Source: an uncultured Acidobacteriota bacterium
GTDB taxonomy: Bacteria > Acidobacteriota > Thermoanaerobaculia > Gp7-AA8
DNA length: 64,000 nt
Assembly: GCA_963822445.1 (NCBI GenBank)
Contig: CAWGHO010000001.1
Location: 672,001 to 736,000 of the forward strand
Direction of reading: 5' to 3'
Each line of letters opens with the position of its first letter. Positions within the stretch are counted from its first letter, which is position 1. The position numbers were made by a program, and so were the translations under genes. This document shows positions 3,001 to 20,452 of the stretch, one piece after another. The notes beneath the pieces are model-generated. The model saw nothing but the letters and a program-made list of their open reading frames with translations. It searched no databases and had not been told where the DNA came from.

Positions 3001-6000
3001 GGAGAGAACCGGCGCACCGACGATGTTCCAGTTGTACGTCGCGCCGGCCCGATCCTCGGACGCGGTGAGAGTCAGCGTGTCGTTCTCGCAGATCCGCGAC
3101 GGATGCGGCTCGACCGCGGCGGTCGGGACCGGATTAACGGTGACGACCTTCGTCGAATTCGAGTAGCAGGAATTCGGGCGATAGACGAGCGCGGTCAGCG
3201 TGACGCTGGTCGAGCCGGCGAACGGCTCGAAGACGATCTCGCGCTCGTAGGCCGACCATCCGGCCTTGACCTGTCCGCCCTGAAGCGTCCAGACGTAGCT
3301 CGCGTCCGCGCCTCCATCCGGAACAGAGGCCATGACCGCGGTGCCCGCGCACATGGAGTCGGGCGAGGTGATGGTCGTATCGGGCGGCGCGACGAGCGGC
3401 ACGGTGACCGAGACTTCGCGCATGCAGCCTGCGGTGGTGAATGCCTGCACGGTGATGGTCACGGGACCGTTGCCGTCAGGGAGAACCTGGCCGCTGGTCG
3501 TGTTGTTGATTCCAGTCTCGCCGTTGATGACCGTCCAGTTGTAACCGGTGAAGCCGCTGCCGTTGACGGTGACCGTGAACTGCGCGTTCGTACATGCGTC
3601 CGCGGGTGCGGTCAGCGTGGGAGCGATCACGTTCTCGTACGGGATCGTGACCGACGCGGGTGCGGCGACGCAGCCGAAGCTGTCCGTGCCGCTGAAATTC
3701 AGCGTGACCGCGCCGCTGCCGTTCGCGGTGAAGGTGACGTCGGTGCCGTTGAACGAAGTCTGACCGTTGCTGAACGTGCCGTTGGTGATTGTCCACGCGG
3801 CCGTGGCCCACGATCCGCCGCCGGACGGCGGGACGGCGCTGGCCGTGGCCGGATCGGTCGCGCAGATTGCGCTCGGCGCGTTGATGGCCGCTGGCGCGAT
3901 CGTGCGGATGGCGACCGTGCGCGTGCTTTCCGCGGTCCAGCAGCCCGCGACCGTGTTGCCGGTAGCGGTGAGCGTCACCGGGCCGGTTCCGTCGGCCTGG
4001 AAGGTGATGGCCATCCCCTCCGGATCGACGTTCTGCAAGGTGCCGTTGGTGATCGACCAGGAGACATAGGTGAATGGATCGGGGGAGATCTGGGTGATCG
4101 ACGCCGATGCGTTCTGGCCGGGGCAGACATTCGACGGCGCGTTGATCGCGGGCGGATCGACGACACGCAACGCGATTTCTTTCGTTGCGACCACGCTGGT
4201 GCAACCGGTGGCATCGCTGACGGTCGCGGTGAGCGTGACCGGACCGTTGCCATTCGCGCGGAAGCCCACGGGATTGCCCATCGTGCTGTCCGTGCCGCCG
4301 CCCATCGGCGAGGCCAGCTCGCCGTTGGTGATGGTCCACCAGACGGAAACCCACTCGCCCTCAGCCGGCGGATCGACGGACGCCGTACTCGGCTCTCCGT
4401 AGCAGATGTTTGCCGGCGCGTTGATGACCGGAGCGGGAAGGTACGTGATGGGAACCGTCGCGCTGGCGACGGTGGTCGTGCACCCCGAGGCGTTCGTGGC
4501 GGAAGCCTGGAGGACTACTGGCTCACCGCCGGTGGTGATGAACTCGACAGTCTCACCGGTCGTGTTCGGGCTCGTGAAGAAGCCGTTGGTGATGGTCCAC
4601 TGAACCTGGGACCACGATCCTTCGGCCGGCGGTGCAACCGATGCGGTCGCGGGGACGTTCGGGCAGACGCCTTCCGGCGCGCTGATGACGGGCGGCTCGA
4701 CCGTGGCGATGGAGACGGTCACGGTGCCCATCGGCGAGTAGCAGCCCTGACTGTCCTGCCCGCCCGCGCTCAACACCACCGGCTCGGTACCCGTGGCAAC
4801 GAACGTCACTCCGTTCCCGCTCGCGCTGGTGGTCTGGTTCCCGAGATAGTCGGTGAAGTAACCGTTCTGGATCGACCAGTACACCATCGACCAGCTGCCT
4901 TCCGCGGGCGGCAGCACCGCCGCGTACTGCGAAGTGTTCGGGCAGACGCTCGCCGGAACGCTGAAGGAGGGGGCCGGGATCGTGCGGATGTCAACGCTGC
5001 GCGTTCCCATCGGCGAGTAGCAGCCCTGATCGTCCTGAGCTCCGACGCTCAGCATCACCGGCCCGGCGCCATTGGCAACGAACATCACTCCGTTCCCGAT
5101 GCTGCTGGTGGTCTGGTTCCCGAGGTAGTCGGTGAAGTAGCCGTTCTGGATCGACCAGTACACCATCGACCAGGTGCCTTCCGCGGGCGGCAGCACCGCC
5201 GCGTACTGCGAAGTGTGCGGGCAGACCTGGACCGGCGCTTCGATCACCGGCGCTGGAATCGTGCGGATCTCGACGCTGCGCGTTCCCATCGGCGAGTAGC
5301 AGCCCTGATCGTCCTGAGCTCCGACGCTCAGCATCACCGGCCCGGCGCCATTGGCAACGAACATCACTCCGTTCCCGATGCTGCTGGTGGTCTGGTTCCC
5401 GAGGTAGTCGGTGAAGTAACCGTTCTGGATCGACCAGTACACCATCGACCAGGTGCCTTCCGCGGGCGGCAGCACCGACGCGTACTGGCTCGTGTGCGGG
5501 CAGACCTGAACCGGCGCTTCGATCGCCGGAGCGGGAATCGTGCGGATCTCGACGGTGCGCGTTCCCATCGGCGAGTAGCAGCCCTGGTCGTCCTGCGCTC
5601 CGATGCTCAACGTCACCGGACCGCTGCCGTTGGCGACGAACATGACGCTGGTGCCGGTCGCGCTGGTGGTCTGCTGCCCCAGGTAGTCGGTGAAGTAGCC
5701 GTTCTGGATCGACCAGTACACCATCGACCAGCTGCCTTCCGCGGGCGGTTGCACCGATGCGTACTGACTTGTGTGCGGGCAGACCTGCGCGGGGGCGTCG
5801 ATGACCGGCGCGGCGATCGTGCGCATCTCGACGGTGCGCGTTCCCATCGGCGAGTAGCAGCCCTGGTCGTCCATGGCGCTCACGCTCAACGTCACCGGCC
5901 CGTAGCCGTTGGCGACGAACATGGCATTCGGGCCGGATGCGTTTGGCTGCGGCCCCCACTCAGTGACGAAGTGACCGTTCTGGATGGACCAGTACACGAG

Positions 6001-7029
6001 AGCCCACTCGCCTTCCGCGGGCGGTTGCAGCGACGCGTACTGACTGGTGTGCGGGCAAACCTCTGCTGGAGCGTCGATGACCGGCGCTGGAAGCTGGCGA
6101 AGCTCGACCTGCGCTGTCCCTGTCTGCGGATCGCAGCCCTCGGTGTCAGTTCCCTGTGCGTAGAGCGTGACCGGGCCATAGCCGTTCGCGAAGAAGGTGA
6201 CCGTCTCGCCGATCGTGGAAGACGTCGTGTAACCCCATTGGTCCCGGAACGATCCGTTGGTGATGCTCCAATAAACGGTCGACCACGATCCGACGCTCGG
6301 CGGCGCAACGCTGGCCGTGTTGTCATCATTCGGGCAGACCTGTGATGGCGCAGTGATCACCGGCGCCGTTCCCTCGCGGATCCCCACGGTCGTAAATGCC
6401 GGAGGCAGCGGACAACCGCTGCTGTGCTGCGTCGTGACCTCGAGCTCGACCGGCGCCGAGCCGGTTGCGCGGAACTCCACCGTTTCGCCGTATGCAAACA
6501 GACGCCAGGGTCCGCCCGGCTCGCGCAGTTGTCCGTGGCTTATCCTCCACTCGACTGACGTCCAGGTACCTGCCGCGGGCGGCGCGACGCTGGCCGGCGA
6601 CACGCTGTGGGCACAGACTTCCGGCGCGACCACGACCACCGGCGGACCGCTCAGCACGGGGATCTGCTCTGACGCTTGCGGCGTCAGGCATCCGAACTGG
6701 TCGGTTGCCTGAGCGGTGAGCGTCACCGGCCCGCTGCCGTCGGCATTGAAGGTGATGTATGGAGGGCCCGTCACGGTGGAAGCCGGATTGCCATTCGCAT
6801 CGAGCAGGTGACCACCCGTCATCGACCAGGTCGTGCTCATCCATTGGCCGCCGCTGGTCGGCGGCTGCAACGACGCCCCCGCGGCGTACGTGCCACAAAG
6901 CAGATCCGGCGCGTCGATGACCGCCGAACAGGTCTGCGCCTCGAGCATCGTGGGCGCTGCAACCAGAAGAAGGAGCGCGAGGAAAAGCCGCGCGAAAGTG
7001 GCTACCCGAGGCGTGCGAGGGACGGACAT
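1..7029 (-). CDS. Giant secreted Ig-like/PKD-type repeat surface protein (adhesin-like); 3' end lies beyond the window
   Basis: ATG at 7029 gives MSVPRTPRVATFARLFLALLLLVAAPTMLEAQ (signal peptide). Spot checks in the same frame at 1-60, 301-360 and 721-840 read as coding (e.g. PTLNVTQAGNYYITVTNASG). Absent from the ORF track, consistent with no stop in the window. Repeats such as SGALSFCQGGSVTLSAPAGYSYLWNNGEDDQSIVVTTSGxYRVTxTDANGC. Confidence 0.85.
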   Translation of the reverse strand, partial: MSVPRTPRVATFARLFLALLLLVAAPTMLEAQTCSAVIDAPDLLCGTYAAGASLQPPTSGGQWMSTTWSMTGGHLLDANGNPASTVTGPPYITFNADGSGPVTLTAQATDQFGCLTPQASEQIPVLSGPPVVVVAPEVCAHSVSPASVAPPAAGTWTSVEWRISHGQLREPGGPWRLFAYGETVEFRATGSAPVELEVTTQHSSGCPLPPAFTTVGIREGTAPVITAPSQVCPNDDNTASVAPPSVGSWSTVYWSITNGSFRDQWGYTTSSTIGETVTFFANGYGPVTLYAQGTDTEGCDPQTGTAQVELRQLPAPVIDAPAEVCPHTSQYASLQPPAEGEWALVYWSIQNGHFVTEWGPQPNASGPNAMFVANGYGPVTLSVSAMDDQGCYSPMGTRTVEMRTIAAPVIDAPAQVCPHTSQYASVQPPAEGSWSMVYWSIQNGYFTDYLGQQTTSATGTSVMFVANGSGPVTLSIGAQDDQGCYSPMGTRTVEIRTIPAPAIEAPVQVCPHTSQYASVLPPAEGTWSMVYWSIQNGYFTDYLGNQTTSSIGNGVMFVANGAGPVMLSVGAQDDQGCYSPMGTRSVEIRTIPAPVIEAPVQVCPHTSQYAAVLPPAEGTWSMVYWSIQNGYFTDYLGNQTTSSIGNGVMFVANGAGPVMLSVGAQDDQGCYSPMGTRSVDIRTIPAPSFSVPASVCPNTSQYAAVLPPAEGSWSMVYWSIQNGYFTDYLGNQTTSASGNGVTFVATGTEPVVLSAGGQDSQGCYSPMGTVTVSIATVEPPVISAPEGVCPNVPATASVAPPAEGSWSQVQWTITNGFFTSPNTTGETVEFITTGGEPVVLQASATNASGCTTTVASATVPITYLPAPVINAPANICYGEPSTASVDPPAEGEWVSVWWTITNGELASPMGGGTDSTMGNPVGFRANGNGPVTLTATVSDATGCTSVVATKEIALRVVDPPAINAPSNVCPGQNASASITQISPDPFTYVSWSITNGTLQNVDPEGMAITFQADGTGPVTLTATGNTVAGCWTAESTRTVAIRTIAPAAINAPSAICATDPATASAVPPSGGGSWATAAWTITNGTFSNGQTSFNGTDVTFTANGSGAVTLNFSGTDSFGCVAAPASVTIPYENVIAPTLTAPADACTNAQFTVTVNGSGFTGYNWTVINGETGINNTTSGQVLPDGNGPVTITVQAFTTAGCMREVSVTVPLVAPPDTTITSPDSMCAGTAVMASVPDGGADASYVWTLQGGQVKAGWSAYEREIVFEPFAGSTSVTLTALVYRPNSCYSNSTKVVTVNPVPTAAVEPHPSRICENDTLTLTASEDRAGATYNWNIVGAPVLSGQGTRTIVIQTQFDSYRVDYTLDVSLNGCSKSSSGSVDVSNLNRNVAFSGATRFCQGGSVTLTAQPGYTYLWSNQSQAQSIVVSESGSYTVQITDQYGCSQTSDPVVVTVDPTPVVDIEVRTSYSETGSGGIVQQNGDTYEICGNPTIALIPTVLNQANTYSWSNNGTPVNYVTTSGTYTLTMTDANGCSTTSAVTLIFTAYPAKPTVTASSTQLCPAGGSVTLTASAADSWTWSNGATTQSITVTEPGSYSVRVSNRFCESVPSDAVVVTTGVSTITVTGSTNLCANGSVTLTANGGDAWQWSNGATTQSITVSTPDSYSVITSNNGCTYTASNPVAVTQREVTVSASGPTTFCDGSSVTLTASADGATSFQWNNGAQGASFAAWQTGTYYVTATYSDGCTVTSDPVTVEARQITATATADRTSVCPGGAISLDGSATGGSGYTYQWYDNTYTAIAGGSSAQFTYTPSTSGFVYLKVIDALGCETNSNAISYTVQSAIDASITAPDAVCEGGSGTASVADAGTNATYAWSITGGTISFPSNREVFFTPSGLGAVTLTVTVTNPGCSAASTKTVTVNALPPATITASGDLSFCQGGSVTLTAPAGYSYVWNNGETGPSINVTTSGTYRVTVTDANGCSRTSADTVVTVNTPPATPTVTASGALSFCQGGSVTLTAPAGYSYLWNNGEDDQSIVVTNSGPYRVTITDANGCTATSADTVVTVNTPPATPTVTASGALTFCQGGSVTLTAPAGYSYLWNNGEDDQSIVVTNSGPYRVTITDANGCTATSADTVVTVNTPPATPTVTASGALSFCQGGSVTLSAPAGYSYLWNNGEDDQSIVVTNSGPYRVTITDANGCTATSPDTVVTVNTPPATPTVTASGALSFCQGGSVTLSAPAGYSYLWNNGEDDQSIVVTTSGVYRVTVTDANGCTSTSADTTVTVNPLPAAPVVSGPTSICPNSSITLTAPAGYASYVWNNGTNGPTLNVTQAGNYYITVTNASG
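170..1245 (-). repeat. About 5 near-identical in-frame tandem repeats of 219 bp (73 aa)
   Basis: YSY(L)W codons recur at about 301, 520, 739, 958 and 1177 (period 219). Confidence 0.9.
4690..6090 (-). repeat. About 5 in-frame tandem repeats of 279 bp (93 aa)
   Basis: cccatcggcgagtagcagccctg recurs near 4725, 5004, 5283, 5562 and 5841 (period 279). Unit VCPHTSQYASVxPPAEGxWSMVYWSIQNGYFTDYLG...DDQGCYSPMG. Confidence 0.9.
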
Positions 7030-8389: not shown

Positions 8390-8880
8390 AACGAATCCAT
8401 TACCTGCTCATAACCGCCGCGATCATCATTCTCGACATCTGGACGAAGGCGCTGGTCCTCCGGCGCATCGACCTGCATGAAGCCATTCCGGTCATCCCGA
8501 ACTTCTTCCAGCTGGTCCACGTGCGCAATACCGGCGCGGCGTTCGGAATCGGCGCGAATGCAGCGTCGAAGATCGTGCCGCTGCTGCTCAACATCGGGGC
8601 GCTGGCGGTGTTCGGAGTGGTGGTCGTGTACGCGCTCCGCTCGTCAGTCACGGACCGCGTCCTCCAGACCGGCCTCCACCTGATCCTTGGCGGCGCGGTC
8701 GGCAACCTCCTCGATCGTTTCCGCTTCGGCTACGTCGTCGATTTCCTCGACGTGTACATCGGCCGCCATCACTGGCCGGCGTTCAACGTCGCCGATTCCG
8801 CGATCTGCATCGGCATTGCCCTGCTTTTCTTCGACATGAAGAAGAAGCCGGAGAGCGAGACGGAAACGGCAACAGCTTAG
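8386..8880 (+). CDS. lspA: Lipoprotein signal peptidase II
   Basis: [34 protein letters not shown] motifs. Confidence 0.97.
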
Positions 8881-9530
8881 ACCGCGATCTCTTTCACGTC
8901 GCCAATCTTCAGCCGCGGCCCGGTCATCTCCTGAACCTGTTCCGGCGTGACCCCCGGCGCGACTTCGATGAGCTCCAGGCCGTCGCTGGTTACGTCGATC
9001 ACCGCGTAGTCGGTGATGATGCGATTCACCACCTGCACTCCGGTGAGGGGCAGATTGCACTGCTCGAGGATCTTCTTCTCCCCCTTCTTGGTGACGTGCT
9101 CCATGGTGACGATCAACCGCCGCGCGCCGGCCACGAGGTCCATCGCCCCGCCCATGCCCTTGACCATCGCGCCCGGCACCATCCAGTTGGCGATGTCCCC
9201 CTTCGCCGAGACCTGCATCGCCCCGAGAATCGACAGATCGACTTTCCCGCCACGGATCATCCCGAAGGAATCCGCGCTCGAGAAAAACGACGCGCCGGCC
9301 AGCGTGGTCACAGTCTGCTTCCCGGCATTGATGAGATCCGGATCGACCTCTTCCTCGCGCGGAAACGGTCCGAGCCCAAGGATGCCGTTCTCGGACTGAA
9401 GGATGACTTCCATACCTTCAGGGATGTTGTTCGCCACCAGCGTCGGCATGCCGATGCCAAGGTTGACGTAGTACCCGTCGCGAAGCTCGCGTGCGGCGCG
9501 GCGGATGATTTGCTCTCTCGTTAATGGCAC
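8877..9530 (-). CDS. scoB: 3-oxoacid CoA-transferase subunit B
   Basis: [30 protein letters not shown]. Confidence 0.95.
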
Positions 9531-9550: not shown

Positions 9551-9583
9551 AGTCGTTAGTCGTTAGTGGTTAGTCGTTAGTAG
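9551..9583. repeat. Heptamer tandem repeat (AGTCGTT)n, left arm flanking the four-helix-bundle gene
   Basis: agtcgtt agtcgtt agtggtt agtcgtt agtag. Confidence 0.85.
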
Positions 9584-9950
9584 GTTTGCGCGGTGCGCGA
9601 TGTTCGGTTGATTGCATCAAACCGTTGATGATTCGGCCGACCTCGTCGGCGCGAGCGGTCGCCGCCCGTATGGCAGCCGGCTCGGCCATCTTCAGTCGCG
9701 TTGCGAGAATCAACTGTGTTTGCAACTCGTGGAGAGAGCCTCGCGCCTGCGCGAGAAAGTGCTGTGTGTCCTTGTTTGTCTGCCTTCCATAGCCTTCCGC
9801 GATGTTAGACGGTATCGACACCGCGCTACGCCGCAATTGAGCCGTCAACCCGTACCTCTCGTCGGCGGGAAAGTCGCGCGTAACCGCGTAAATCTCCTCG
9901 ACGAGATCCATCGCTTTCTGCCAGGCGATCAAATCGCGAAACGAGTCCAT
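9570..9950 (-). CDS. Four-helix-bundle protein (23S rRNA IVP / TIGR02436-like family)
   Basis: FRDLIAWQKAMDL...FPADERYGLTAQLRRSAVSIPSNIAEG...ARGSLHELQTQL. Confidence 0.93.
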   Translation of the reverse strand: MDSFRDLIAWQKAMDLVEEIYAVTRDFPADERYGLTAQLRRSAVSIPSNIAEGYGRQTNKDTQHFLAQARGSLHELQTQLILATRLKMAEPAAIRAATARADEVGRIINGLMQSTEHRAPRKPTND

Positions 9951-9990: not shown

Positions 9991-10671
9991 CGTCCTCTGC
10001 TCAATCCTCTTCACCCGCTCCGCCACAATCATCCGATGCACAAAGATCCCCGGCGTGTGGATGCAATCGGGATCGAGCGCGCCGGGCTCCACGAGCTCTT
10101 CGACTTCTGCGATGCAGACCCTTCCCGCCGTGGCGGCCATGGGATTGAAGTTGCGGGCGCTCTTGCGGTAGACGAGATTGCCGAGGCGGTCGCCGCGCCA
10201 GGCGGCGACGAGGGAGAAGTCGCCGACGATGCCGCGCTCCATCACGTACTGGCGGCCGTCGAACTCGCGGGTCTCCTTCCCTTCCGCGACCACCGTGCCG
10301 ACGCCGGCCGGTGTATAGAACGCCGGGATGCCCGCCCCGCCGGCGCGCATGCGCTCGGCCAGCGTTCCCTGCGGCGCAAACTCCACCTCCAGCTCGCCGG
10401 CGAGGAACTGCCGCTCGAACTCCGCGTTCTCGCCGACGTACGACGAGACCATCTTGCGGATCTGGCGCGTCTGCAGGAGCAGGCCCAGTCCCCAGTCATC
10501 GACGCCGGCGTTGTTGGAGACGCAGGTCAGGCCCTTCACGCCCTTCTTCACCAGCGCGTTGATCAAATTTTCGGGGATGCCGCAGAGGCCGAAACCGCCG
10601 ACGACGAGGGTGGAGTTGTCGCCGATGTCGTGAATCGCTTCATCGGCCGAGGCGATGACTTTGTTGATCAT
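9979..10671 (-). CDS. scoA: 3-oxoacid CoA-transferase subunit A
   Basis: MINKVIAS...[13 protein letters not shown]...SNNAG...SYVGEN...PQGTLAER...[11 protein letters not shown] at 10671 overlaps the upstream stop (ATGA). Confidence 0.95.
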
Positions 10672-12038
10672 TCGGCGCGAGACGATATACCAACCGTCTT
10701 CTCCAGCCACGCCACGGCCCGCTCCGGATGCGGTTTCGTGTCGTTCATCATCAGCCGTTCGCGCGTGAGGATCTGGCAGTTCTTGATCGCCCGCTGTTCC
10801 GCCGTCGAGAATCGGCCGTCCACGGCCTCGGTGCGCGGGAAGCAGGCATTGCGGCGGAGGAAGATCTCGATCGCCATGCGCTCGAGCGCGGTCGTCGATT
10901 CCGCGCCGTCGCGGCGGATCGATTCCAGTGCGGCCGGCGCGATCTGAATCCCGCGCGGCGGGCTCGCCGCGAGCGCGTCCGCGATCCGTTGCGCGCGGGT
11001 GGGCGGCGGCGGCTCCGGTTCGGGTTCGGAAGCGGCGGTCGTCGTCTCCGCCACGGCCGCCGTCTGTGTGGGTTCCGGCGCACTGAGGCCCTTGCGGATC
11101 TCGTTCACGTTGAACGCGATCCACGCCAGCAGCACGATGATCACGACGTCCCGGGCCAGGCGCCAGATCAGTTCGGGTTGCGGAAAAGGGCTTTTCGACG
11201 GGGTCGGTTGCTTTCGCATCTCACTGATCTCCGGTGACGGACGATGCCGGGCTCGGGGCGCGACCGCTCGCGGGCGCGAGCGCCTCTGGCGAAGGGCGAC
11301 GGCCATCTTCCACCCCTCGAGAACGTCGCCGGCCGAGGTGTCGACCATCGACTCGATCTCGGACGGCACGTCCTCCTCCAACTCGGGCGGCGCGGCATTG
11401 GTCAGGATGTATTGGTACCCCGCGCCATTGAACCGGTTCGGCTGCAATTGCGCGATCTCCGGGTCGACGGGACCCAGCAGGTAAAGCCATGGAAGCACGT
11501 CAAGCGTGCCGCGGCTGACCTCCAGCTCGATCGGACGGTCGCCGGGACCGGACGTGCGATAGGCGCGCGCAAGGTGCACCTTCAGGAACGTGCGAAACCG
11601 GTCGTCATGAAGACGGGTCGTCTCGAGGTCGTCGAAGACATCGCGTCCGACCAACCGGGAGGCGTTCTTGTTGGCCCGGTCGAGCAAGTCCGGCAGGCGC
11701 TTCGAATCCGGGAGCTCCGCCCACAGCAGTGGAAGCGTGAGCGGCGGGACGGGCCGATCGGTCCAGACACCCCACAGCTTCCACGCGCCGTAACGCTTCG
11801 CCGAGTCATTGACGACCCAGCCCATCGCGCCGATCACGCGGCCGCCGCCGCCGCTGAACTGATACAGAAAGGGTCCGCCCGCGCCATCGGGCAATCGGGA
11901 CAGCGCGGCGCCGAGGGGCTCGAAGAAGTCGAGGTATTCGCGCAGAGTGACGACCTGGCCGGCGTCATCGACGTAGTCGCCGCGGAGCTCGCGAAACAGC
12001 GGCGTTCCGTTCGCGCGTGCGTCGGCGTCAGGAAGCAT
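10668..12038 (-). CDS. Hypothetical single-pass membrane protein; N-terminus GTPase-associated (GAP1-N)-like, C-terminus peptidoglycan-binding-like
   Basis: 456 aa, coupled to both neighbours. One TM ([13 protein letters not shown]), Pro/Glu linker, tail [17 protein letters not shown] resembling the PG_binding_1 motif. NDSAKRYG only loosely resembles GAP1-N DxxGR. Confidence 0.6.
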
Positions 12039-13344
12039 GTCGCCTCAGGATCTCCAGCAGGAGAAGGTCGCCCCACACCGGCAATCCGTCATCGCCATCG
12101 CGGGCCGCATTCTCCTCGGCGGCGCCCGGCAGGAACTCGATCCCGCACGGAAGCACCGGGAACTGAGGCTCCGCACCGGCTCGCATGGCCTCGCGGATCA
12201 TGGCCGAAAAGTCGCCGCGTCCGGCACCGTCCCATGCCGCGAACAGCGCCGCCGCGAGCCGCATGCACTGCTTCACAAGCGTTTCTCCCACGCCTCCCTT
12301 GAAGAAATAGTAGAGCTCCACCTTGCCGGTCTTGAACCTGGCGTGAAGCGACGTGTAAGCAATCATCATCCGGTACAGCAACCAGGTGAGACTCTCCAGC
12401 AGCTCGAGACGCCCGCTCCAGTTGCGCGTGTCCTGCACCAGACGCTCGATGTCGGATGCGGCGGCGACGAAGCTGCTGTCGATCACATCATCCGCGCCCG
12501 CGACCACGCGGCGAGCCAGCGCCAGCGCGGTCTCGCTGCTTTCGAGAAATTTGAACAGCGCCTGCTCGTCCCGGAGCTGCGCGACGTCGAGGTGCGTCCA
12601 GATGACGCCCTGCCAGGTGCGGCGCGAGTCCGGCCGGTTCGTCAGGTGAGCCGTGAGCTGACCGATGTTCTGGCGCGACAGAGTCGGATCGAACGGCACC
12701 ACGAACATCACCAGGAGCTCCGCGAACGCCATCGACCGGAGGTTGTTGAGGATGTCCAGCACGCGCATGTACTTGTCGGGCGTCGTCGAGCGCTGGTGGA
12801 AGACCTCGCCCTTCACGTCGACGCCCGCGACATCGATGCGATGCCGCCCGAAGGTGAGATCCATCCCGTGCAGAAGGACGGGGACGGCGGTGCGGGGATC
12901 GGGATTGGCGATCGTGTACGGCTCGACGAAGCGGTATGGATCGCGGCTGATCAACGTCGTCGGTTCGGCGACGAGGTACTTCTTCGAGGCCGGATTGAAC
13001 AGGCACTTGAGCCAGGTCGTTTTTCCCGCGGCCGGCAGGCCCGCGGTGATGAGAAGGACCCTCGACTTGGTGTCGCTCAGGAATTGCGGCGGGATCAGAG
13101 ACGAGCACTTGCTGCAGCGGCGGTGCGGGCTCGGCACCGCCGAGCGCTCGAAGGTGGGCTGATCCCATTCCAGGCGCGGCTCGTTGAGCGCAACCGCGGC
13201 GGTGGGCGGCAGGCCGCGGTGCTGTTTCCAGTGCGGACCGACCTGCTGATTCCAGGTGTCGGCCCGTCCGACGGGGACGGGATAGAAGCCGTCCCCTCCG
13301 CAGATCGGACAGATCTGCGCCGTTTTTCTTCCGAAGAGACTCAT
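12028..13344 (-). CDS. Zn-ribbon TRAFAC-like P-loop GTPase
   Basis: CPIC and CSKC, G1 GLPAAGKT, G3 DVKGE, G4-like THLD. Confidence 0.75.
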   Translation of the reverse strand: MSLFGRKTAQICPICGGDGFYPVPVGRADTWNQQVGPHWKQHRGLPPTAAVALNEPRLEWDQPTFERSAVPSPHRRCSKCSSLIPPQFLSDTKSRVLLITAGLPAAGKTTWLKCLFNPASKKYLVAEPTTLISRDPYRFVEPYTIANPDPRTAVPVLLHGMDLTFGRHRIDVAGVDVKGEVFHQRSTTPDKYMRVLDILNNLRSMAFAELLVMFVVPFDPTLSRQNIGQLTAHLTNRPDSRRTWQGVIWTHLDVAQLRDEQALFKFLESSETALALARRVVAGADDVIDSSFVAAASDIERLVQDTRNWSGRLELLESLTWLLYRMMIAYTSLHARFKTGKVELYYFFKGGVGETLVKQCMRLAAALFAAWDGAGRGDFSAMIREAMRAGAEPQFPVLPCGIEFLPGAAEENAARDGDDGLPVWGDLLLLEILRRHAS

Positions 13345-16300
13345 GGTTCCATCAGCCGCAACAGCTCTGCCATGTGATTGTCGATGAATCGCCCGAGTTG
13401 TTCGGTCGCGAATCCTTCCGAGGACCGTTCCGCCACGAACGACAACGTGAGCGCGTTCTTTGCCCGTCCGTCGTCATCGCGGGCAATGATCACCATCAGT
13501 ATCCGCGACGTGGGCCGCTCCGGGTCGATGGTCGCGAGCGTCCCGGTCTTGGCATACACGTCATAGCGGTTTCGCAGCGGCTGCACGCGCGAGCGGATCC
13601 TGATGGCCGTCCCATCCTCGAGCACGCGCCACAGTCCGCGATCGAGTTTCGCCGCCGCCGCGGCCGCCTCTTTGTCGAACGCCGCGGTGCGCGACGCGAG
13701 CGGTTTCGCCGCAGATACCGGGACGATGTGCGCGACGACCGGCTTTCGAATCGCCCATGACGAAAACGCCGCCGCCGCACCGACGTTCGACCAGCGGCTG
13801 GACGCGCCGCCGAGGAGCACGGCGATGAGCTCGCGGGTCCGCGTAATGCGATTCAGGCTCAAATCGACAGCCTCGGGACTCACCACGGCGAGCGGCTCGA
13901 GCGCGTTGCTCGTGCCGAGGTCGTCGGATTCGTCGCCCGACCAGAAGGAAAGGTGACGGCGTCGCAGGTCGCCGTCCGCCGATGGCGCGCCTGTCCTAAC
14001 GCCGAACAGATCGCGCATCAGCGCCGCGACACGCTGTTCGTGGAGGTTCGCGACCTGCAGCGGCTTGTCGCGGGTGTGTCCCGTCGAGTCGGCGAGCGCG
14101 GGATAACGGTTCCAGGGAGTCGCGCTGGCGGTCAGCGATTCGCGATCGCTTCCCGCAGGCCCGCGGCCATCGTCGCCGATTCGATTGCCCTCGCCGCGCG
14201 CGAACCCGAGAAAGCCGAGGCGTGTGTGATAGCGGTTGTCGGAGGCGGCGAGGTACGTGCTGAAGTCGATCCAGCGAGCGCGTGGCGACACCTGCCAGCC
14301 CTTCCCGATTTCCGCGCCGAACAGCTCCTGTTCGTAACAGCGTTTCTTGACGACGCGGTCGCATGGGCCGTTCCGCGTCCACAGCAAGTCGTCGAGTCGC
14401 GGATGCACGATCAGCGCGGCCGTCGCCCAGAACGGCTTTGCGGCCGAGCCGATCTCGATCGCCGCGAGGTTATGGTCGACCGCATGCCGCGACGCGAGCG
14501 GCCGCGGCGTGGTCGCGCTGAGCCAGGAGAACGGCGGATCGCGCTCGATCCACGAGCGGCCGCCCGCGGTGACCGTGCGTGAGCTCCAGTCATCCCGGTC
14601 CGCCGCGCGCGGCCAGGAGCTCATCGCCAGCACCTCGCCCGTCGTTCCTCGAAGAATCGTCATCGCCACGCGCGGCGGCAGCGGCGCCGATGCCCCTTCC
14701 GCGATCAGTTTGCTGAAGCCTTCCCTCCCCGCCCCGTCCACAGTTGCCTGCGTGATCCGCTGCAGATCGGCATCGAGAGTGAGCTCGCTGATCCGCGGCT
14801 CGCGATGGACGCGGAGCAGCGCATCACCCGCGTGTCCCATCCATCCGAGGCCGAGGCGGCGCGCCTCACGCGTGGTCGCGTAGAACCACCGTCCCATCAC
14901 CCAGGCCCGTCCGAGGATTCGAACCGGGCCCTGGCCTCCCCGGATCGACACCGGCGGCAGTTCCTCCTCGCTACGCTCTTCGGCGAACGAGTGAACGATG
15001 TTGTAGTCGGGATTCCCCGTGACTTCGTACGCGATCTCCGCCGCGCCCTCGGCATCCTCTTCGACGCGGCGGATGGCGAAGACGCTCGGCCGCGTGCGCG
15101 CACCGCGATCGATCTCCCGCCGCCAAAGCTCGAACATCCGCGTGTAGTACTCCTCGGGATGCGTGAGGCCGTTGAAGAAGTCGGCCGGCAGCGACTCGCG
15201 GCCACCGTCCATCCGCAGCGCCACCGGAAGTGAGTTGAAGCGGAGCACTTCCGCCTCGAGCAGCGTCGCGCCGCCGGGGCGATCGGTGCAGTCTTCGCCG
15301 TTGCAGTAGCGGATCAGCTTCTTCGCCTCGTCGAAGCGAAGTGTCCCCGCGTCGCGGAGCTCGTCCACGCGGCGCAACAGGCGCGACCAGGTCAGGACGT
15401 CGAACTCGTTCGAGCGGACCGCGCGAATCGAGCCGCGCACGACGAGCACGGTCACGAGGAGAGCCGGGAGCAGCGCCAGCGCGGCATACTCGCGCTTGCC
15501 CAACCTGATCGCGAGTGGAATGGCGAGCGCGAACGCGAGCCAGGCGAAATCGTTCGTTGCCAGCGCGACGATTGCTCCGAGAAGGACGATCGCCGCGAGA
15601 ATGCCGCGCCGCATCAATCGCCGTCGCCGGTGCACGAAATCGGGATCGAAGATGGTCGTGCGCGTGACCGCGGTCTCCGGGAGCATCTCCACCGAATCGG
15701 CGCGAAGGCCGGACGACCAGAGCAGGGCCTGACACATCAGCCCGAGCAGAAGCGCCCAGCGGAGCGCGTCGGAGTTCGACGCAGTGGCCAGCAGCGGCAG
15801 ATTCCGTCCGCTGAACCACAGTTGGGAGACGTTCATCGCCGCATGCACGACTGCCTCGCCGAAAAATGCAGCGGCGATGGCGATCGCCAGGAGGTCGCCG
15901 ATTCGAAGCCGCGAGCGGCGCATCAGCAACAGAACGGCCGGCACGGCGAAGATCGCCAGGAGGAACAGCCCGCCGAAGATCCCATGCTCGGCGGAGATGA
16001 AGAAGGAGTAGACGCTGTCGTACTGGATCGTGTCCTGGCGGATGAACGATTGCGACGCGGGCGCGCGATTGAATCCAAGGCCGTCCCACCCGCCCTTCCG
16101 CACCATGGCCATGTGCTCCCACGCGTGCACGAGGGCATTGCGTACGCTGCCGGCGGTGACCGCCTTCGCGTCGCCTTGCGACGGCGCCTCGAGATCGAGC
16201 AGCCATTCCTGCGCCGCCGAGCCGTACTTCATCACCTCGACGCGGCTGAGAATGTGCTCGGTCATCCCCGGCGCGATCGCATATCCGCCGAGAAGGGCCT

Positions 16301-18620
16301 GGTAGGCGATGGCCACGCCGATCACCAGCACCGCCAGCAATGTGGCCGCGACCCGGAACGCAGGCGTGAGCAGAAGCAGCAATGCCAGCGGGAACCAGAA
16401 CGCGAGCACGGCGTAGATCGAGCCGAAGTCGCCGAGCATGCCGATCATCAGCGCGACCGGAGCAAACACCAGCGCGATGACGGCAGTGATCGAGTCGCCG
16501 TGGGTCGGCTCTGCCTGCGCGGAGCCGTCGCCGTCGAGGACCTGCAGTGCGTCCTCCGTTGCCGCGAGCGGCCGCGCCAGCAGGAGAAGTGCAGGAATCC
16601 CCACCATCCAGAACGGGGCGACGATCTGACGCACGTACTCCGGCGCGATGCGCGCGAGCACCAGCACGACCACCGTGCCGGCCAACCAGATCAGAACCAG
16701 TGGTCTTACTGCCGGCGCACGCAGCGCGGTCGTAACCCGCAGGACGGGTCGCGGCACATGACGCAGCCACTTGTGTGTGGATCGCGGCTGGGACAAGGTA
16801 TCGGCCAGCGTTCGCCAGAAGGTCCGGCCGGCTTCGAAGGTCACGCGATACGGAAGCTGCCAGATGATCGAGAGCGCGCGCAGGACCGTTCCGCCGAACG
16901 CCGCCGCGATCGCAAGCGCCGCCACGACGTAGACCACGAGCAGGAGTCGATCGAAGGGCGACGGCCGGAAAAGCTCCACCAGATTCGGCAGGACCTGCCG
17001 CGGCATGAGCACGAATTCGGCGATCGAGCCTGCCACCAACGCTACGGCGACGCCCGCGGTCACAGCCGCGCTGTGCCGTTCGAATTCGACTCCGGGCCGG
17101 TGATGCAGCCAAAGTCGGATGGCGAGGGTGATGAAGCCGGGCACGATCACCAGCGCCGCGAGCGTGCCGGCCAGCCCTTTGGCAGTCACCTCGTCGATCG
17201 CCGCCGGCGTGAGCAGATAGCGGACGGCGAGCAGCACGCGGATCAACAACACGGTCCAAACGGCGGCGATCACGCCGCCGATGCACCAGAGGTCGCGCAG
17301 CCGGAGGCGATGCATGCGGCCGAAGGCGATCGAAGCGACAAAGCCGGCGAGGATCAGCCACGCCAGTCCGAGCGCGAGCAGCAGCGCGCGCGGCGTCGGC
17401 AGGTCGCGGATGACGGTGATCGTGAGCAGCAGCCCGCGCGCGCGCGCCAGATTCGGCATGAGCAACGGCACGCGGATGCTGGAGAGAGCGCGGTTCGGCT
17501 CGAAGGCGGCGCCGAGCACCCCTTTGGTCCGGACAAAGCGCGGCGCGTCAGGGCCGGCCCGCGGCGTGAGATCGGCGCCGTCGCGAAACCGCGGCAGCCC
17601 GCCTTCAGAAAGCCGCAGCGCCGCGTCGTGCCGGAACTCCGCGGCTCCATGACCGAGCGGGAGAAGAAAGGTGTTCGCGCCGGCGGCGGGCTCGCGCCCG
17701 AACGAGAGCGTGCTCGCGTTCTCCGTGAATGGCGGGAGCGAGGTCGTGCGCGTCCACGGCGGATCGAACGAGAGACGCGGCCGGCCGCCTTCATCCCTCA
17801 GGCGCATGACCAGCCGGCGGCGCGGCCAGAGCACTTCGACGACCGCCGGCTTTCCGTCGCGCAGCGTAACCGGAAGCTCGCGCCACGATTCATCATCCGT
17901 AAGCAATCGCACTTCGTTCTTGTGAGGCCGAAGCACGCGGATCGACGCCGCCCACTCCTCGAGCGCACGCACGTTCGCGAGGTCGAGCTTTCCCTCGCGC
18001 CGCAAATCGTTCAACCGCGACTGGAGCAGCGAGTCGAGCGACCGGGCGCGCGTCGCATGCACTTCAGGCGGATTCATGATGACCATCGGCTCGGCCACCG
18101 GCGTGCGGCTGATGATCAGTTTCCGCCGCCGCAGGAATCCTTTGCGCCGCAGCTCGAGGGAGAACTTGCCGGCCTGCTTCGCGCCGCCGCCGAGGGTGAC
18201 CACGTCGCCGTTCGCGTACGCGCCGTCGACGCGTACGAGCGCCGTTCCGCCACGCGTCCGCAGCCGAAACCCACCACCGCCCGCCCGTTCCACGCGCACC
18301 TCGGGACGGAAACTGCCATTCGGCCAGCCGATGACCGCCGAGTGCTCCGCACCACCGATGGCGATGGTTCCCGACTCAGGGTCGGCGCTTTCGGCAGCGG
18401 TCCATGCGATCTGTGTCGACCGCGGCCACTCGGCCACCGACACCAGCGGCCAGAGCGTGAATGGCACCGCCGCGAGCGTCGCGACGAGAATCACGACGAA
18501 AGGCGCGATGTGACGACGGTTACCGAGCGACGGAAGGGCCTCTTCCCGATGCCGCAGTTCGAGCACCCACGCGATGCACACGTACCCCACGAGGCACAGC
18601 GCCAGCATCGGAATGGTCAT
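13341..18620 (-). CDS. 1759-aa fusion: extended N-terminus + FtsW/RodA (SEDS)-like membrane domain + penicillin-binding transpeptidase
   Basis: SEDS-like motifs GDFGS, GGWDGLG, QYDSVYSFFISAEHG, GRNLPLL. PBP motifs LTLDADLQ, TGEVLAMSSWP, SAAK (SxxK), SDN (SxN), KTGT. Confidence 0.82.
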   Translation of the reverse strand: MTIPMLALCLVGYVCIAWVLELRHREEALPSLGNRRHIAPFVVILVATLAAVPFTLWPLVSVAEWPRSTQIAWTAAESADPESGTIAIGGAEHSAVIGWPNGSFRPEVRVERAGGGGFRLRTRGGTALVRVDGAYANGDVVTLGGGAKQAGKFSLELRRKGFLRRRKLIISRTPVAEPMVIMNPPEVHATRARSLDSLLQSRLNDLRREGKLDLANVRALEEWAASIRVLRPHKNEVRLLTDDESWRELPVTLRDGKPAVVEVLWPRRRLVMRLRDEGGRPRLSFDPPWTRTTSLPPFTENASTLSFGREPAAGANTFLLPLGHGAAEFRHDAALRLSEGGLPRFRDGADLTPRAGPDAPRFVRTKGVLGAAFEPNRALSSIRVPLLMPNLARARGLLLTITVIRDLPTPRALLLALGLAWLILAGFVASIAFGRMHRLRLRDLWCIGGVIAAVWTVLLIRVLLAVRYLLTPAAIDEVTAKGLAGTLAALVIVPGFITLAIRLWLHHRPGVEFERHSAAVTAGVAVALVAGSIAEFVLMPRQVLPNLVELFRPSPFDRLLLVVYVVAALAIAAAFGGTVLRALSIIWQLPYRVTFEAGRTFWRTLADTLSQPRSTHKWLRHVPRPVLRVTTALRAPAVRPLVLIWLAGTVVVLVLARIAPEYVRQIVAPFWMVGIPALLLLARPLAATEDALQVLDGDGSAQAEPTHGDSITAVIALVFAPVALMIGMLGDFGSIYAVLAFWFPLALLLLLTPAFRVAATLLAVLVIGVAIAYQALLGGYAIAPGMTEHILSRVEVMKYGSAAQEWLLDLEAPSQGDAKAVTAGSVRNALVHAWEHMAMVRKGGWDGLGFNRAPASQSFIRQDTIQYDSVYSFFISAEHGIFGGLFLLAIFAVPAVLLLMRRSRLRIGDLLAIAIAAAFFGEAVVHAAMNVSQLWFSGRNLPLLATASNSDALRWALLLGLMCQALLWSSGLRADSVEMLPETAVTRTTIFDPDFVHRRRRLMRRGILAAIVLLGAIVALATNDFAWLAFALAIPLAIRLGKREYAALALLPALLVTVLVVRGSIRAVRSNEFDVLTWSRLLRRVDELRDAGTLRFDEAKKLIRYCNGEDCTDRPGGATLLEAEVLRFNSLPVALRMDGGRESLPADFFNGLTHPEEYYTRMFELWRREIDRGARTRPSVFAIRRVEEDAEGAAEIAYEVTGNPDYNIVHSFAEERSEEELPPVSIRGGQGPVRILGRAWVMGRWFYATTREARRLGLGWMGHAGDALLRVHREPRISELTLDADLQRITQATVDGAGREGFSKLIAEGASAPLPPRVAMTILRGTTGEVLAMSSWPRAADRDDWSSRTVTAGGRSWIERDPPFSWLSATTPRPLASRHAVDHNLAAIEIGSAAKPFWATAALIVHPRLDDLLWTRNGPCDRVVKKRCYEQELFGAEIGKGWQVSPRARWIDFSTYLAASDNRYHTRLGFLGFARGEGNRIGDDGRGPAGSDRESLTASATPWNRYPALADSTGHTRDKPLQVANLHEQRVAALMRDLFGVRTGAPSADGDLRRRHLSFWSGDESDDLGTSNALEPLAVVSPEAVDLSLNRITRTRELIAVLLGGASSRWSNVGAAAAFSSWAIRKPVVAHIVPVSAAKPLASRTAAFDKEAAAAAAKLDRGLWRVLEDGTAIRIRSRVQPLRNRYDVYAKTGTLATIDPERPTSRILMVIIARDDDGRAKNALTLSFVAERSSEGFATEQLGRFIDNHMAELLRLMEP

Positions 18621-18720: not shown

Positions 18721-19185
18721 TCATTTGCCTTCGCGGAGCAGTACCCGCGCATCATCGAGCGTGTTGTCGATGGCTTCCTGACTGCGCACGAGGTCCGTCG
18801 ATGGAGGCGAACCATTGCGCACGGACGCGTCGAGCTCGCCGACCAGGTTGCGCAGATCGCGCATCGCTCCCTGCGTCTTCAGGCACGACTCGTTTTCACA
18901 CGTACACGCCGAATCAGCCTCGGAAATCCGCTGGTCGATGTCGGTCTTGAACCTGCTCCAGGCTTCGATGTCGTACGGCGGGTTCACGAAGCGCCCCAGA
19001 CCGTTGCCCCAGGCATTCGACGCAGCCGTTGCGCGGCCGACGCAGGAGTCGTCCGCGCGCGAATCAATGCTCGTCGCGGCGGACTTCGTGCTCAGGCGGC
19101 CCTTGATCCGCGGCGCGAGCTCCTTCCAGCCAAAGACGAGCAAGGCCAGGATGACCACCCACTTCACCAGCTTCCCAATTTCCAT
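18721..19185 (-). CDS. Hypothetical membrane-anchored helical protein with 4 Cys
   Basis: MEIGKLVKWVVILALLVFGW N-terminal TM; helical remainder. Confidence 0.65.
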   Translation of the reverse strand: MEIGKLVKWVVILALLVFGWKELAPRIKGRLSTKSAATSIDSRADDSCVGRATAASNAWGNGLGRFVNPPYDIEAWSRFKTDIDQRISEADSACTCENESCLKTQGAMRDLRNLVGELDASVRNGSPPSTDLVRSQEAIDNTLDDARVLLREGK

Positions 19186-19526
19186 GGCAATGAGTATGCG
19201 CGCGATCCTGACCGCCGGCCACTCCGCCACGGCCCGAGGACGAACGGAATCGCCTTGACGCCTTTCCAGACGGGTAGTCCGTACGCCGTCGGATCGATTG
19301 CAGAAAAGCAAGAATTTAGAAAGGAGGCAAAAACTCACCCCTTTTCCCAGTTTGTGAGGCGTGAGCTCGCATGACGAAGGCGTTGATCTGTTCTCGCGTC
19401 GCGAGTTGAAGTGAGTGTTCTTGCTCGAAGCAAGTGATGTGGCCGTAGCCTTAAAGTCAAAATCCCGGAGACGCCTTCGTGTTTGGTGTCGGGATGCCGG
19501 AAGTGTAGCTCCTCGGCGGACTTTTC

Positions 19527-19552
19527 TTGGTTTCGGCTACGCCGAGGTAGGG
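19527..19552 (+). promoter_or_regulatory. 26-bp upstream motif, copy 1 (candidate operator)
   Basis: TTGGTTTCGGCTACGCCGAGGTAGGG, identical to 22858-22883. Contains CTAC-N6-GTAG palindrome; about 55 bp before ATG 19607. Confidence 0.65.
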
Positions 19553-19606
19553 AAATTGCCCGCCGATGCACCCCTACACAGGGGGATACCTCTGCGAGAG
19601 GTACGC

Positions 19607-20452
19607 ATGACGCAGACTCACCACGTCGTTCAGGTTCTCGGTGCCGCGCACGGACGCAAGACGCTGGCACATTGGAATACGGGTTCGGCATCGCGCCTGA
19701 TTGTCTTCGTTCACGGTTTTGGCGGGAAGCCTGACACCACTTGGCCGGATTTCCCCACGCTCCTCCGGCAGAAGGCGGGCCCTCCGCCCTTCGACTACGT
19801 CTTCTTTGGCTACGATGGGTTGCGCAAGCAAGCCACGAACAGCGGGAAGCAGTTTCTTGGATTCCTGGACCACTTTCTCGGTGACCCGGCGGCACTCGTC
19901 AACGCGACGATTCCGTCCCTCGAGAAGCGTAAATCGTTCACCTACGACCGCGTCGTGATCGCCGCGCATTCGCTCGGGGCGGTGGTCACGCGACGGGCGT
20001 TGCTCGATGCGCATGCCCTGCATGCGGCGGGGAAACTCATGCCCTGGCTGCCGACTGTGCGTCTGGTCTTCTTTGCGCCGGCGCACACTGGCGCATACGC
20101 CGCGGGGCTCGTCACCGAAGCACTCACCGATCAACCGTGGTACCTCGCGAAGCTGGCTGGGTATTACGCTCGTTTCCAGAGCCCGCTCCTCGCAGACCTC
20201 AAGGAAGGCTCGCAAGTGTTGCGCGCCCTTGCCGATGACACGGCCAAGATCACCGACCACGTGATGCCCCCACCGCACTATGTGCGCGCACGTGTCCTCC
20301 TCGCGGGGGACGAGATTGTCGTGAACAACACGCGCTTCGGGGTCGACCCGGTGGTGCCGCCGCAAGACGTGCTTCCCTCCAGCCACACCGGAGTCTGCAA
20401 GCCACGACGCATCGACCACGCCGCACTACGGGCCGTCTGGAACGAGCTATGA
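19607..20452 (+). CDS. Alpha/beta-fold hydrolase (DUF676/PGAP1/SesB-like lipase)
   Basis: VFVHGFGG, AHSLG nucleophile elbow, C-terminal HTGVCKP. GAGG RBS before ATG 19607. Confidence 0.8.
   Translation: MTQTHHVVQVLGAAHGRKTLAHWNTGSASRLIVFVHGFGGKPDTTWPDFPTLLRQKAGPPPFDYVFFGYDGLRKQATNSGKQFLGFLDHFLGDPAALVNATIPSLEKRKSFTYDRVVIAAHSLGAVVTRRALLDAHALHAAGKLMPWLPTVRLVFFAPAHTGAYAAGLVTEALTDQPWYLAKLAGYYARFQSPLLADLKEGSQVLRALADDTAKITDHVMPPPHYVRARVLLAGDEIVVNNTRFGVDPVVPPQDVLPSSHTGVCKPRRIDHAALRAVWNEL

Follow-up and report, generated by a model that had tools for sequence, protein, structure and literature searches.

Here we describe a cassette of three overlapping genes, A, B and C, found in a stretch of 64,000 nucleotides (the window; positions 672,001 to 736,000 of contig CAWGHO010000001.1, assembly GCA_963822445.1) from an uncultured soil acidobacterium of the class Thermoanaerobaculia. 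Our analyses establish how the genes are arranged, that the cassette is conserved, that B folds as a Ras-like GTPase with distant kinship to DO-GTPase2, and that A is kin to SEDS proteins. Gene C encodes a single-pass membrane protein. We tentatively favor the view, held with less than full conviction, that the three genes form a self-contained cassette in which a transmembrane GTPase switch is attached to an accessory peptidoglycan synthase.

A conserved cassette of three overlapping genes

The open reading frame (ORF) listing of the window places A, B and C next to each other, all on the minus strand:

13341..18620, minus strand: gene A, giant divergent fusion resembling SEDS proteins and penicillin-binding proteins (PBPs), 1759 amino acids (aa); from the ORF, its translation and its homologs
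12028..13344, minus strand: gene B, zinc-ribbon Ras-like GTPase and distant DO-GTPase2 relative, 438 aa; from the model, structure matches and hhalign
10668..12038, minus strand: gene C, single-pass membrane partner of B, 456 aa; from the ORF, its homologs and the position downstream of B

Read in the DNA, A and B overlap by 4 base pairs (bp) at the junction ATGA, and B and C by 11 bp. All three reading frames are intact, and the GC content at third codon positions (GC3) of 0.83-0.85 matches that of housekeeping neighbors. A scan for promoters and terminators gave nothing above chance, and none of the three proteins had a significant match in the Pfam, NCBIfam and PADLOC scans.

The order A-B-C was kept in all seven distinct other places examined, which correspond to nine locus records (L013 equals L035, and L014 equals L037). 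None of ten neighboring proteins from the window was found beside the trio elsewhere at E<=1e-5. The flanks in other genomes are heterogeneous and mostly metabolic, and the sole mobile-element gene in the flanks of six scanned loci is an IS110 transposase (L040). The trio is more than a chance neighborhood. Among 24 genomes of the same genus, orthologs of A and B co-occur in eight (G006, G007, G011, G012, G013, G020, G023 and G024), and no genome has only one of them. The B family was detected in 9 of these 24 genomes and in none of 16 outside the genus; G014 carries only a divergent B+C pair, located downstream of RHS-repeat genes, and G001 only a partial A-like gene. Across the phylum, B was found in 1 of 401 genomes, the window's own, and A-like proteins in 12 of 401, mostly as partial matches. 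The spread is thus patchy (8 of 24 genomes in the genus, 1 of 401 in the phylum for B), and the trio A-B-C is confined to one Thermoanaerobaculia genus.

A sequence-only reading of this DNA had proposed three coupled genes with overlaps of 4 and 11 bp, on which the ORF list and the DNA agree, and had expected the trio to recur in other genomes, as it does in the seven places and the eight same-genus genomes. Its suggestion that the trio makes up a system stands for a conserved cassette within one genus; as a general system it does not, because the B+C core also occurs without A.

Gene A: a giant, very divergent relative of SEDS proteins

The protein encoded by A could be divided into four regions, with three PBP motifs in the last of them:

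18432-18620, minus strand: residues 1-63, two hydrophobic helices; from hydropathy
17403..18431, minus strand: residues 64-406, conserved soluble N-terminal domain of ~340 residues; from hydropathy and conservation
15417..17402, minus strand: residues 407-1068, polytopic membrane region with the SEDS core; from hydropathy and the PF01098 match
13344..15416, minus strand: residues 1069-1759, soluble C-terminal region with PBP motifs; from motifs and conservation
14436-14447, 14235-14243 and 13539-13550, minus strand: PBP motifs SAAK, SDN and KTGT, respectively; from the alignment

A full-length search of 7999 candidates identified 75 homologs of A at E<=1e-3, of which about 60 are close orthologs with 59-85% identity; the distant homologs, including some from Blastocatellia and Terracidiphilus, have 26-33% identity, 1654-1861 aa and E-values of 1e-90 to 1e-163. 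A related-locus search with A (query A1) returned close relatives only. The SEDS family model PF01098 (FTSW_RODA_SPOVE) was matched at E<=0.01 by 10 of 15 scanned homologs, five of them above its cut-off of 26.4 bits. Searched in six frames with PF01098, the genome gave a match in A itself at window positions 15783-16022 (E 3.3e-5, 24.6 bits), and a direct hmmscan of A gave no PF01098 match. The SEDS membership of A rests on transitive homology, since full-length homologs match PF01098 whereas A itself stays below the threshold. By these profile comparisons, A is kin to SEDS proteins and very divergent.

The membrane region contains at least 14 hydrophobic segments. Within it, D868, S869, G880, G883, F936, G938, R939 and P942 are invariant in an alignment of 13 sequences, and we take these residues to be equivalent to the SEDS motifs. 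The N-terminal domain carries W65, P66 and G98-W99-P100 as residues invariant across the family and had no family match in library scans or in a PDB profile search. In the C-terminal region, S1392xxK1395, S1460-D-N1462 and K1691-T-G-T1694 follow one another in the order SxxK-SxN-KTG and are invariant in the same 13 sequences, which span 28-85% identity. This region also matched TIGR03423 weakly (E 0.096), and the transpeptidase model PF00905 was matched weakly, below its cut-off, by two of the 15 scanned homologs. PDB sequence searches with A, either as a single sequence or as a profile, gave no match. The C-terminal part thus appears PBP-like at the motif level only, and its transpeptidase fold is putative.

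Canonical FtsW/FtsI and RodA/PBP2 pairs are encoded on contig 2 of the same genome, apart from the cassette. The canonical RodA is split over three frames, and PBP2 and FtsI over two each (G000:C2:168030-170114, C2:190213-191137); these split frames are probably indel errors of the long-read assembly, which has three contigs, with real pseudogenes as the alternative.

Gene B: a zinc-ribbon GTPase with a Ras-like fold

The following features of B were located on the DNA:

13105..13311, minus strand: split zinc ribbon, residues 12-80, C12xxC15 ... C77xxC80; from conservation
12586..13041, minus strand: region of the G-domain motifs; from the translation and alignments
13018-13041, minus strand: Walker A, residues 102-109; from conservation
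12805-12819, minus strand: D176xxG179-E180; from conservation
12586-12597, minus strand: T250-H-L-D253; from conservation
12160..12570, minus strand: helical insert, residues 259-395 (~137 residues), placed after G4 and before the final strand and helix of the G domain; from the secondary structure of the model

The four cysteines of the zinc ribbon show no variation in an alignment of 12 sequences and almost none in one of 27. Walker A lies within AGLPAAGKT (residues 101-109), and the family-conserved DxxG is D176-V-K-G179, followed by the invariant E180. In the alignment of 27 sequences, GKT, D176xxG179-E180 and W249-T250-x-L-D253 are invariant or nearly so. The AlphaFold model computed from this alignment has a predicted local distance difference test score (pLDDT) of 86.8 and a predicted template modeling score of 0.88. 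A VIA structure search with it gave GTPases in all 50 rows listed, with G-domain matches spanning residues 91-438. The top match is Rab28 (Z 12.0, r.m.s.d. 3.6, 165 residues aligned), and LokiRagO, a Lokiarchaeal RagA-like protein, matches at Z 11.2. Foldseek matches at E<=1e-3 are FeoB and Drp1, and MglA is also among the Foldseek matches of B. The model and its structural matches indicate a Ras-like G-domain fold for B.

The nearest ESM Atlas clusters to B are DO-GTPase2, with scores of 0.94-0.96. GAP1-N2 was found in none of 301 sampled Acidobacteriota, and the proteins for comparison, five DO-GTPase2 and six GAP1 proteins verified with Pfam, were therefore taken from four genomes of another class. 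hhalign of the B family against the five DO-GTPase2 proteins gave 95.1% (E 3e-8, 177 columns), and the alignment begins with the second CxxC knuckle, takes in Walker A and DxxGE and ends at G4. As controls, the B family against the Era-like G domains of its own genome gave 87% over only 53 columns, and DO-GTPase2 against the Era-like control 36% over 21 columns. B shows the hallmarks of DO-GTPase2: Walker A, DxxG followed by Glu, the Asp for guanine specificity, and a zinc ribbon of which the second knuckle is aligned. Both Pfam DO-GTPase models, including DO-GTPase2 (PF19993), failed to match B; sub-threshold DO-GTPase2 matches were found in five of 24 B-family members (E 0.027-0.3). A PDB sequence search with B gave 8yl2 as the best match at only E 0.54. 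Judged by these profiles, B is a distant relative of DO-GTPase2 and not a member of the family as it is defined. The B family is also rare: 83 homologs were found at E<=1e-3 in a 90%-clustered collection, nearly all with >59% identity, and a search of 1.84 billion cluster representatives gave 31.

Gene C: a single-pass membrane partner of B

Homologs of C numbered 111 at E<=1e-3 among 8000 candidates (39-77% identity), and five further relatives with 20-22% identity were taken from loci that carry distant B homologs. C lies directly downstream of B in four of five distant metagenome loci and also in G014. The model of C (pLDDT 78) comprises an alpha/beta domain (residues 16-254), a membrane helix and a well-predicted helical domain (residues 348-449):

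11274..11996, minus strand: residues 15-255, predicted cytoplasmic alpha/beta domain, longin/DENN-like in the model; from the model and structure matches
11085..11174, minus strand: residues 289-318 (approximate), transmembrane helix; from hydropathy and the model
10689..11003, minus strand: residues 346-450, predicted periplasmic helical domain with the motif VDGxFS..A..R.I; from the model and family conservation

An Arg-rich stretch precedes the membrane helix, and these positive charges place the N-terminal domain in the cytoplasm, on the same side as B. In this domain, R82 and R202 are invariant. The periplasmic domain is predicted with a pLDDT of ~90 and is conserved across the family; distant homologs carry LQ..F....G.....DG..G...A in the tail.

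In a wide VIA search with C, the rows down to TagF (rank 15) were longin/DENN regulators or TagF, with the exception of two class D beta-lactamases (ranks 14 and 17, Z 4.8 and 4.7). C9orf72-SMCR8 (7o2w) led with Z 7.2 over 112 residues, followed by a Loki Roadblock-Longin protein (6.8), GATOR1 (6.3), Lst4 (6.2), DENND1A (6.1 over 224 residues) and TagF (6.1 over 211 residues), with FLCN-FNIP among the further matches. A second VIA look gave only longin/DENN proteins or TagF in the top 24 rows, and Foldseek ranked the same proteins first (DENND1B, E 3.2e-3, probability 0.97). These model-based matches are consistent with a longin/DENN-like fold of C, which we do not regard as secure.

The sequence-only reading had taken C for a GAP1-N protein with a peptidoglycan-binding tail. 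No Pfam GAP1 domain was found in 17 C-family members at E<=5, a PDB sequence search on GAP1 gave no match, and the ESM Atlas score of C to GAP1-N2/M clusters was 0.87, below the mark of 0.9 and a lead only. The GAP1-N assignment accordingly lacks support in that form, and a longin/DENN-like fold is suggested in its place. For the tail, a resemblance at the motif level stood: hhalign against PG_binding_1 (PF01471) gave a weak match (11.8%, E 0.0025, 31 columns) that keeps the DG...A...Q motif in register. Membership in PG_binding_1 did not, as the model matched none of the 17 C-family members, and a genome-wide search found three such domains elsewhere and none in C.

Other parts of that reading fared better. 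All motifs it named in B (two CxxC, GxxxxGKT, DxxG and THLD) are present in the translation, and a zinc-ribbon TRAFAC GTPase of the DO-GTPase kind agrees with VIA, the ESM Atlas and hhalign. The membrane partner directly downstream of the GTPase was recovered as a conserved family with a single helix, and hydropathy, model and translation bear out its cytoplasmic N-terminal domain, one transmembrane segment and VDG tail motif. The SEDS-PBP-like fusion is backed by the PF01098 matches of homologs and the invariant SxxK, SxN and KTGT, and separateness from divisome and elongasome by the location of FtsW/FtsI and RodA/PBP2 on contig 2. Its interpretation is therefore partly supported, the protein classes being largely right and the GAP1-N and peptidoglycan-binding assignments unproven.

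A possible GTPase switch for an accessory peptidoglycan synthase

B and C constitute the conserved core, which we read as an ancient two-gene switch that A joined in one genus. In the mechanism that we propose, the switch would consist of B, a cytosolic zinc-ribbon Ras-like GTPase of the DO lineage, and the single-pass membrane protein C. The longin/DENN-like cytoplasmic domain of C is predicted to bind B and to set its nucleotide state, either as a GTPase-activating protein (GAP) or as a guanine-nucleotide exchange factor (GEF), and one of the two invariant arginines, R82 or R202, might serve as arginine finger. The small periplasmic helical domain of C might read a cue from the wall or the periplasm. 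In one Thermoanaerobaculia genus, the switch would be joined to A, in which a SEDS glycan polymerase is putatively fused to a class-B-PBP-like transpeptidase and which would serve as an extra synthase beside canonical FtsW/FtsI and RodA/PBP2. A periplasmic signal would change C, C would shift B between its GTP and GDP states, and in one of these B might engage the cytoplasmic face of A and thereby switch on or localize peptidoglycan synthesis. Transpeptidase activity, B-C binding, GAP or GEF action, the contact between B and A and the nature of the cue are inferred parts of this scheme. A predicted complex of B with residues 1-262 of C scored 0.22 and 0.01 (mark 0.32) without controls and is evidence neither way.

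A bolder version, which we consider unlikely, is that the cytoplasmic domain of C is a true prokaryotic longin/DENN module acting as GAP or GEF on a DO-type GTPase. It would create a switch across the membrane similar to Rag/FLCN or Rab/DENN, which would gate a SEDS-PBP synthase in response to a periplasmic cue.

A possible independent hint of coupling between A and a GTPase comes from a genome of another class (G398; locus L032, G398:C110, 6927-10990, minus strand), where ORFs of 468 aa and 931 aa precede a distant A homolog on the same strand. The 468-aa ORF contains CPLC, GSKGVGKT, YDTAGE and LTQFD, that is, a zinc knuckle and Walker A, and this GTPase-like sequence is suggestive of such coupling. 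The 931-aa ORF is without a family. hhalign of the single sequences of both ORFs against A3, A5, A6 and A7 was not significant, and 137 genomes from its class contained no homolog of the GTPase-like ORF. Near other A-like matches, a scan for the combination of zinc ribbon, Walker A and DxxGE had no result.

Several observations weigh against the proposed switch-synthase cassette. For C, every structure match has a Z-score below the VIA caution mark of 8 (maximum 7.2), with no Foldseek match at E 1e-3, and hhalign of the C family against the six verified GAP1 proteins gave 0.1%. For A, PF00905 did not match the protein itself, and hhalign against the transpeptidases of its own genome gave 7.3% (E 0.0048) in the KTGT block only. 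An extra hydrophobic segment at residues ~1010-1030 (window ~15530-15590) occurs in the close clade only and not in distant homologs; when it is included, a simple helix count puts the PBP-like part on the wrong side of the membrane, making the topology of this part uncertain. For the coupling, the GTPase-like ORF in G398 was not significant in any profile test, and G171 has A-like proteins with no recognizable GTPase nearby. Five other loci (L011, L048, L049, L050 and L052) carry B+C but no A, and in one more (L051) B is found as a kinase fusion with neither C nor A, so A is not needed for the switch; A is in none of the five distant metagenome loci. The patchy spread is as compatible with an accessory or conflict role as with a morphogenetic one. 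The neighbors of distant B+C pairs likewise fit a conflict role, namely the RHS-repeat genes in G014 and, in L048 (1339-7860), a phage-type integrase and a Cap4-nuclease/AAA_16 protein at a distance of 1-7 kilobases. Another distant pair is placed after a LytTR two-component pair.

Alternative explanations

The main rival, which we rate as somewhat unlikely, is a biological-conflict system for defense or containment of the DO-GTPase/GAP1 kind. B and C would be its sensing and threshold switch, and A an effector recruited to remodel or seal the wall when a phage, predator or competitor attacks. The relationship of B to DO-GTPase2, the switch of GTPase-centric conflict systems (PMC7159879), speaks for this possibility, together with the RHS and integrase/Cap4 neighbors just described, the patchy distribution and the variable flanks. 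Two B-family members are also fused to kinases: in L051 (710-2950, plus strand) a Ser/Thr kinase domain is attached to the N-terminus of the GTPase, with neither C nor A seen there, and protein P0168 is a second Ser/Thr-kinase-GTPase fusion. Other observations speak against it. PADLOC has no match for A, B or C, C is not a GAP1 protein, and the trio flanks consist of ordinary metabolic genes and one IS110 transposase (L040) in the six loci scanned, where a GASH or FNIII component was not seen. A peptidoglycan synthase would also be an atypical effector.

It is improbable that A is a sensor or scaffold instead of a working synthase, one whose PBP-like domain would bind muropeptides or beta-lactams in the way of BlaR1 or PASTA sensors and pass the signal on via B and C. 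In favor of this reading, PF00905 does not recognize the divergent PBP-like part, and A carries a large extra N-terminal domain and extra helices. Against this, the invariance of the three acyl-enzyme motifs and of the SEDS loop residues at 28-85% identity points to catalysis retained in both halves, and C already has a periplasmic domain of its own.

That A and B+C are mere neighbors with unrelated functions is very improbable, because, although each is found without the other in some genomes, the genes overlap by 4 and 11 bp, keep the same order in seven of seven places despite different flanks, and are co-present in the genus (both orthologs in eight genomes, only one in none).

Other features of the window

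Upstream of A, two small ORFs of 205 and 186 aa with a 4-bp overlap (window 18721-19895, minus strand) are without a family and without a counterpart beside the trio in other genomes. The GC3 of the first is 0.76 and coding-like, and that of the second, 0.49, is not coding-like. At window 9570-9950 (minus strand), an ORF for an Avd-like/23S rRNA intervening-sequence four-helix protein is located between two CoA-transferase subunit genes (9979-~10650 and 8877-9530). An open-ended ORF of >2343 aa at window 1-7029 (minus strand), which runs off the window, encodes a giant surface protein with Ig_7 (CHU_C-associated), BiPBP_C and PKD domains.

Significance

Synthases composed of a SEDS protein and a class B PBP (bPBP) are central antibiotic targets. 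Their known activators are, to our knowledge, proteins of the divisome or elongasome, and our literature searches found no report of a Ras-like GTPase switch encoded with a SEDS-bPBP synthase. The families of B and C are captured by neither Pfam, NCBIfam nor PADLOC. If the longin/DENN resemblance of C holds, it would extend the bacterial regulators of small GTPases beyond MglB and would suggest a role for the partners of DO-GTPases. If C were a true longin/DENN module, SEDS enzymes would be controlled in a new way, and bacteria would have a counterpart, perhaps even a forerunner, of the longin/DENN-GTPase pairs of eukaryotes.

Comparison with known systems

Kaur, Burroughs, Iyer and Aravind (2020) described the DO-GTPase/GAP1 systems with a Walker B glutamate, N-terminal zinc ribbons, a downstream partner, membrane-proximal versions and a kinase theme (PMC7159879). 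According to that source, the N-terminal zinc ribbon is present in 60% of DO-GTPase2 members. B shares the TRAFAC GTPase domain, the N-terminal zinc ribbon and the Glu after DxxG with these systems, and the cassette shares the partner gene directly downstream, the membrane anchoring of the partner seen in some versions and some association with kinases (PMC7159879). The Pfam models of these systems are PF19993 (DO-GTPase2), PF19975, PF20012 and PF20013 (GAP1-N), PF20014 (GAP1-M) and PF20052 (GAP1-C). Unlike the DO-GTPases, B has a helical insert of 137 residues and fails the Pfam DO-GTPase models. C is encoded directly downstream of the GTPase, as GAP1 is, but with its 456 aa it has neither the N-M-C architecture of GAP1 nor profile similarity to it. 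The trio also differs in lacking a second GTPase and a GASH or FNIII protein, and in having a peptidoglycan synthase as the attached component.

The longin/DENN regulators (FLCN-FNIP, C9orf72-SMCR8, GATOR1 and DENND1) and bacterial TagF are the best matches to the predicted fold of C residues 11-265, and C is likewise paired with a Ras-like GTPase. The resemblance is limited by Z-scores below 8 and identities of 7-12%, and, unlike these proteins, C is membrane-anchored with a periplasmic domain. Zhang et al. (2012, PMC3521125) regard DENN and d-DENN as domains known only in combination, as parts of the DENN module. MglA/MglB is likewise a bacterial pair of a Ras-like GTPase and its cognate regulator, the latter with a fold of the Roadblock/longin class. 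However, MglA has neither the zinc ribbon nor the helical insert of B, and MglB is small and soluble in contrast to C; MglA/MglB controls polarity and not wall synthesis, according to the literature.

A would join both enzymes in one polypeptide, as do the chimeric SEDS-bPBP "bifunctional class B" synthases (Microlife 2025, PMC12516126), of which 117 with ~900-950 aa were found through InterPro domain matches. The Rhodococcus jostii chimera, as described in that survey, has the glycosyltransferase at the N-terminus and canonical FtsW/FtsI alongside, like A, and the term GTPase is absent from the survey (PMC12516126). In contrast to these chimeras, A has 1759 aa, is invisible to Pfam, possesses a 340-residue N-terminal domain and extra helices and belongs to a cassette with a GTPase, representing a much larger and previously undetected variant. 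The cassette thus combines two recently described kinds of systems, the chimeric SEDS-bPBP synthases and the DO-type GTPase systems.

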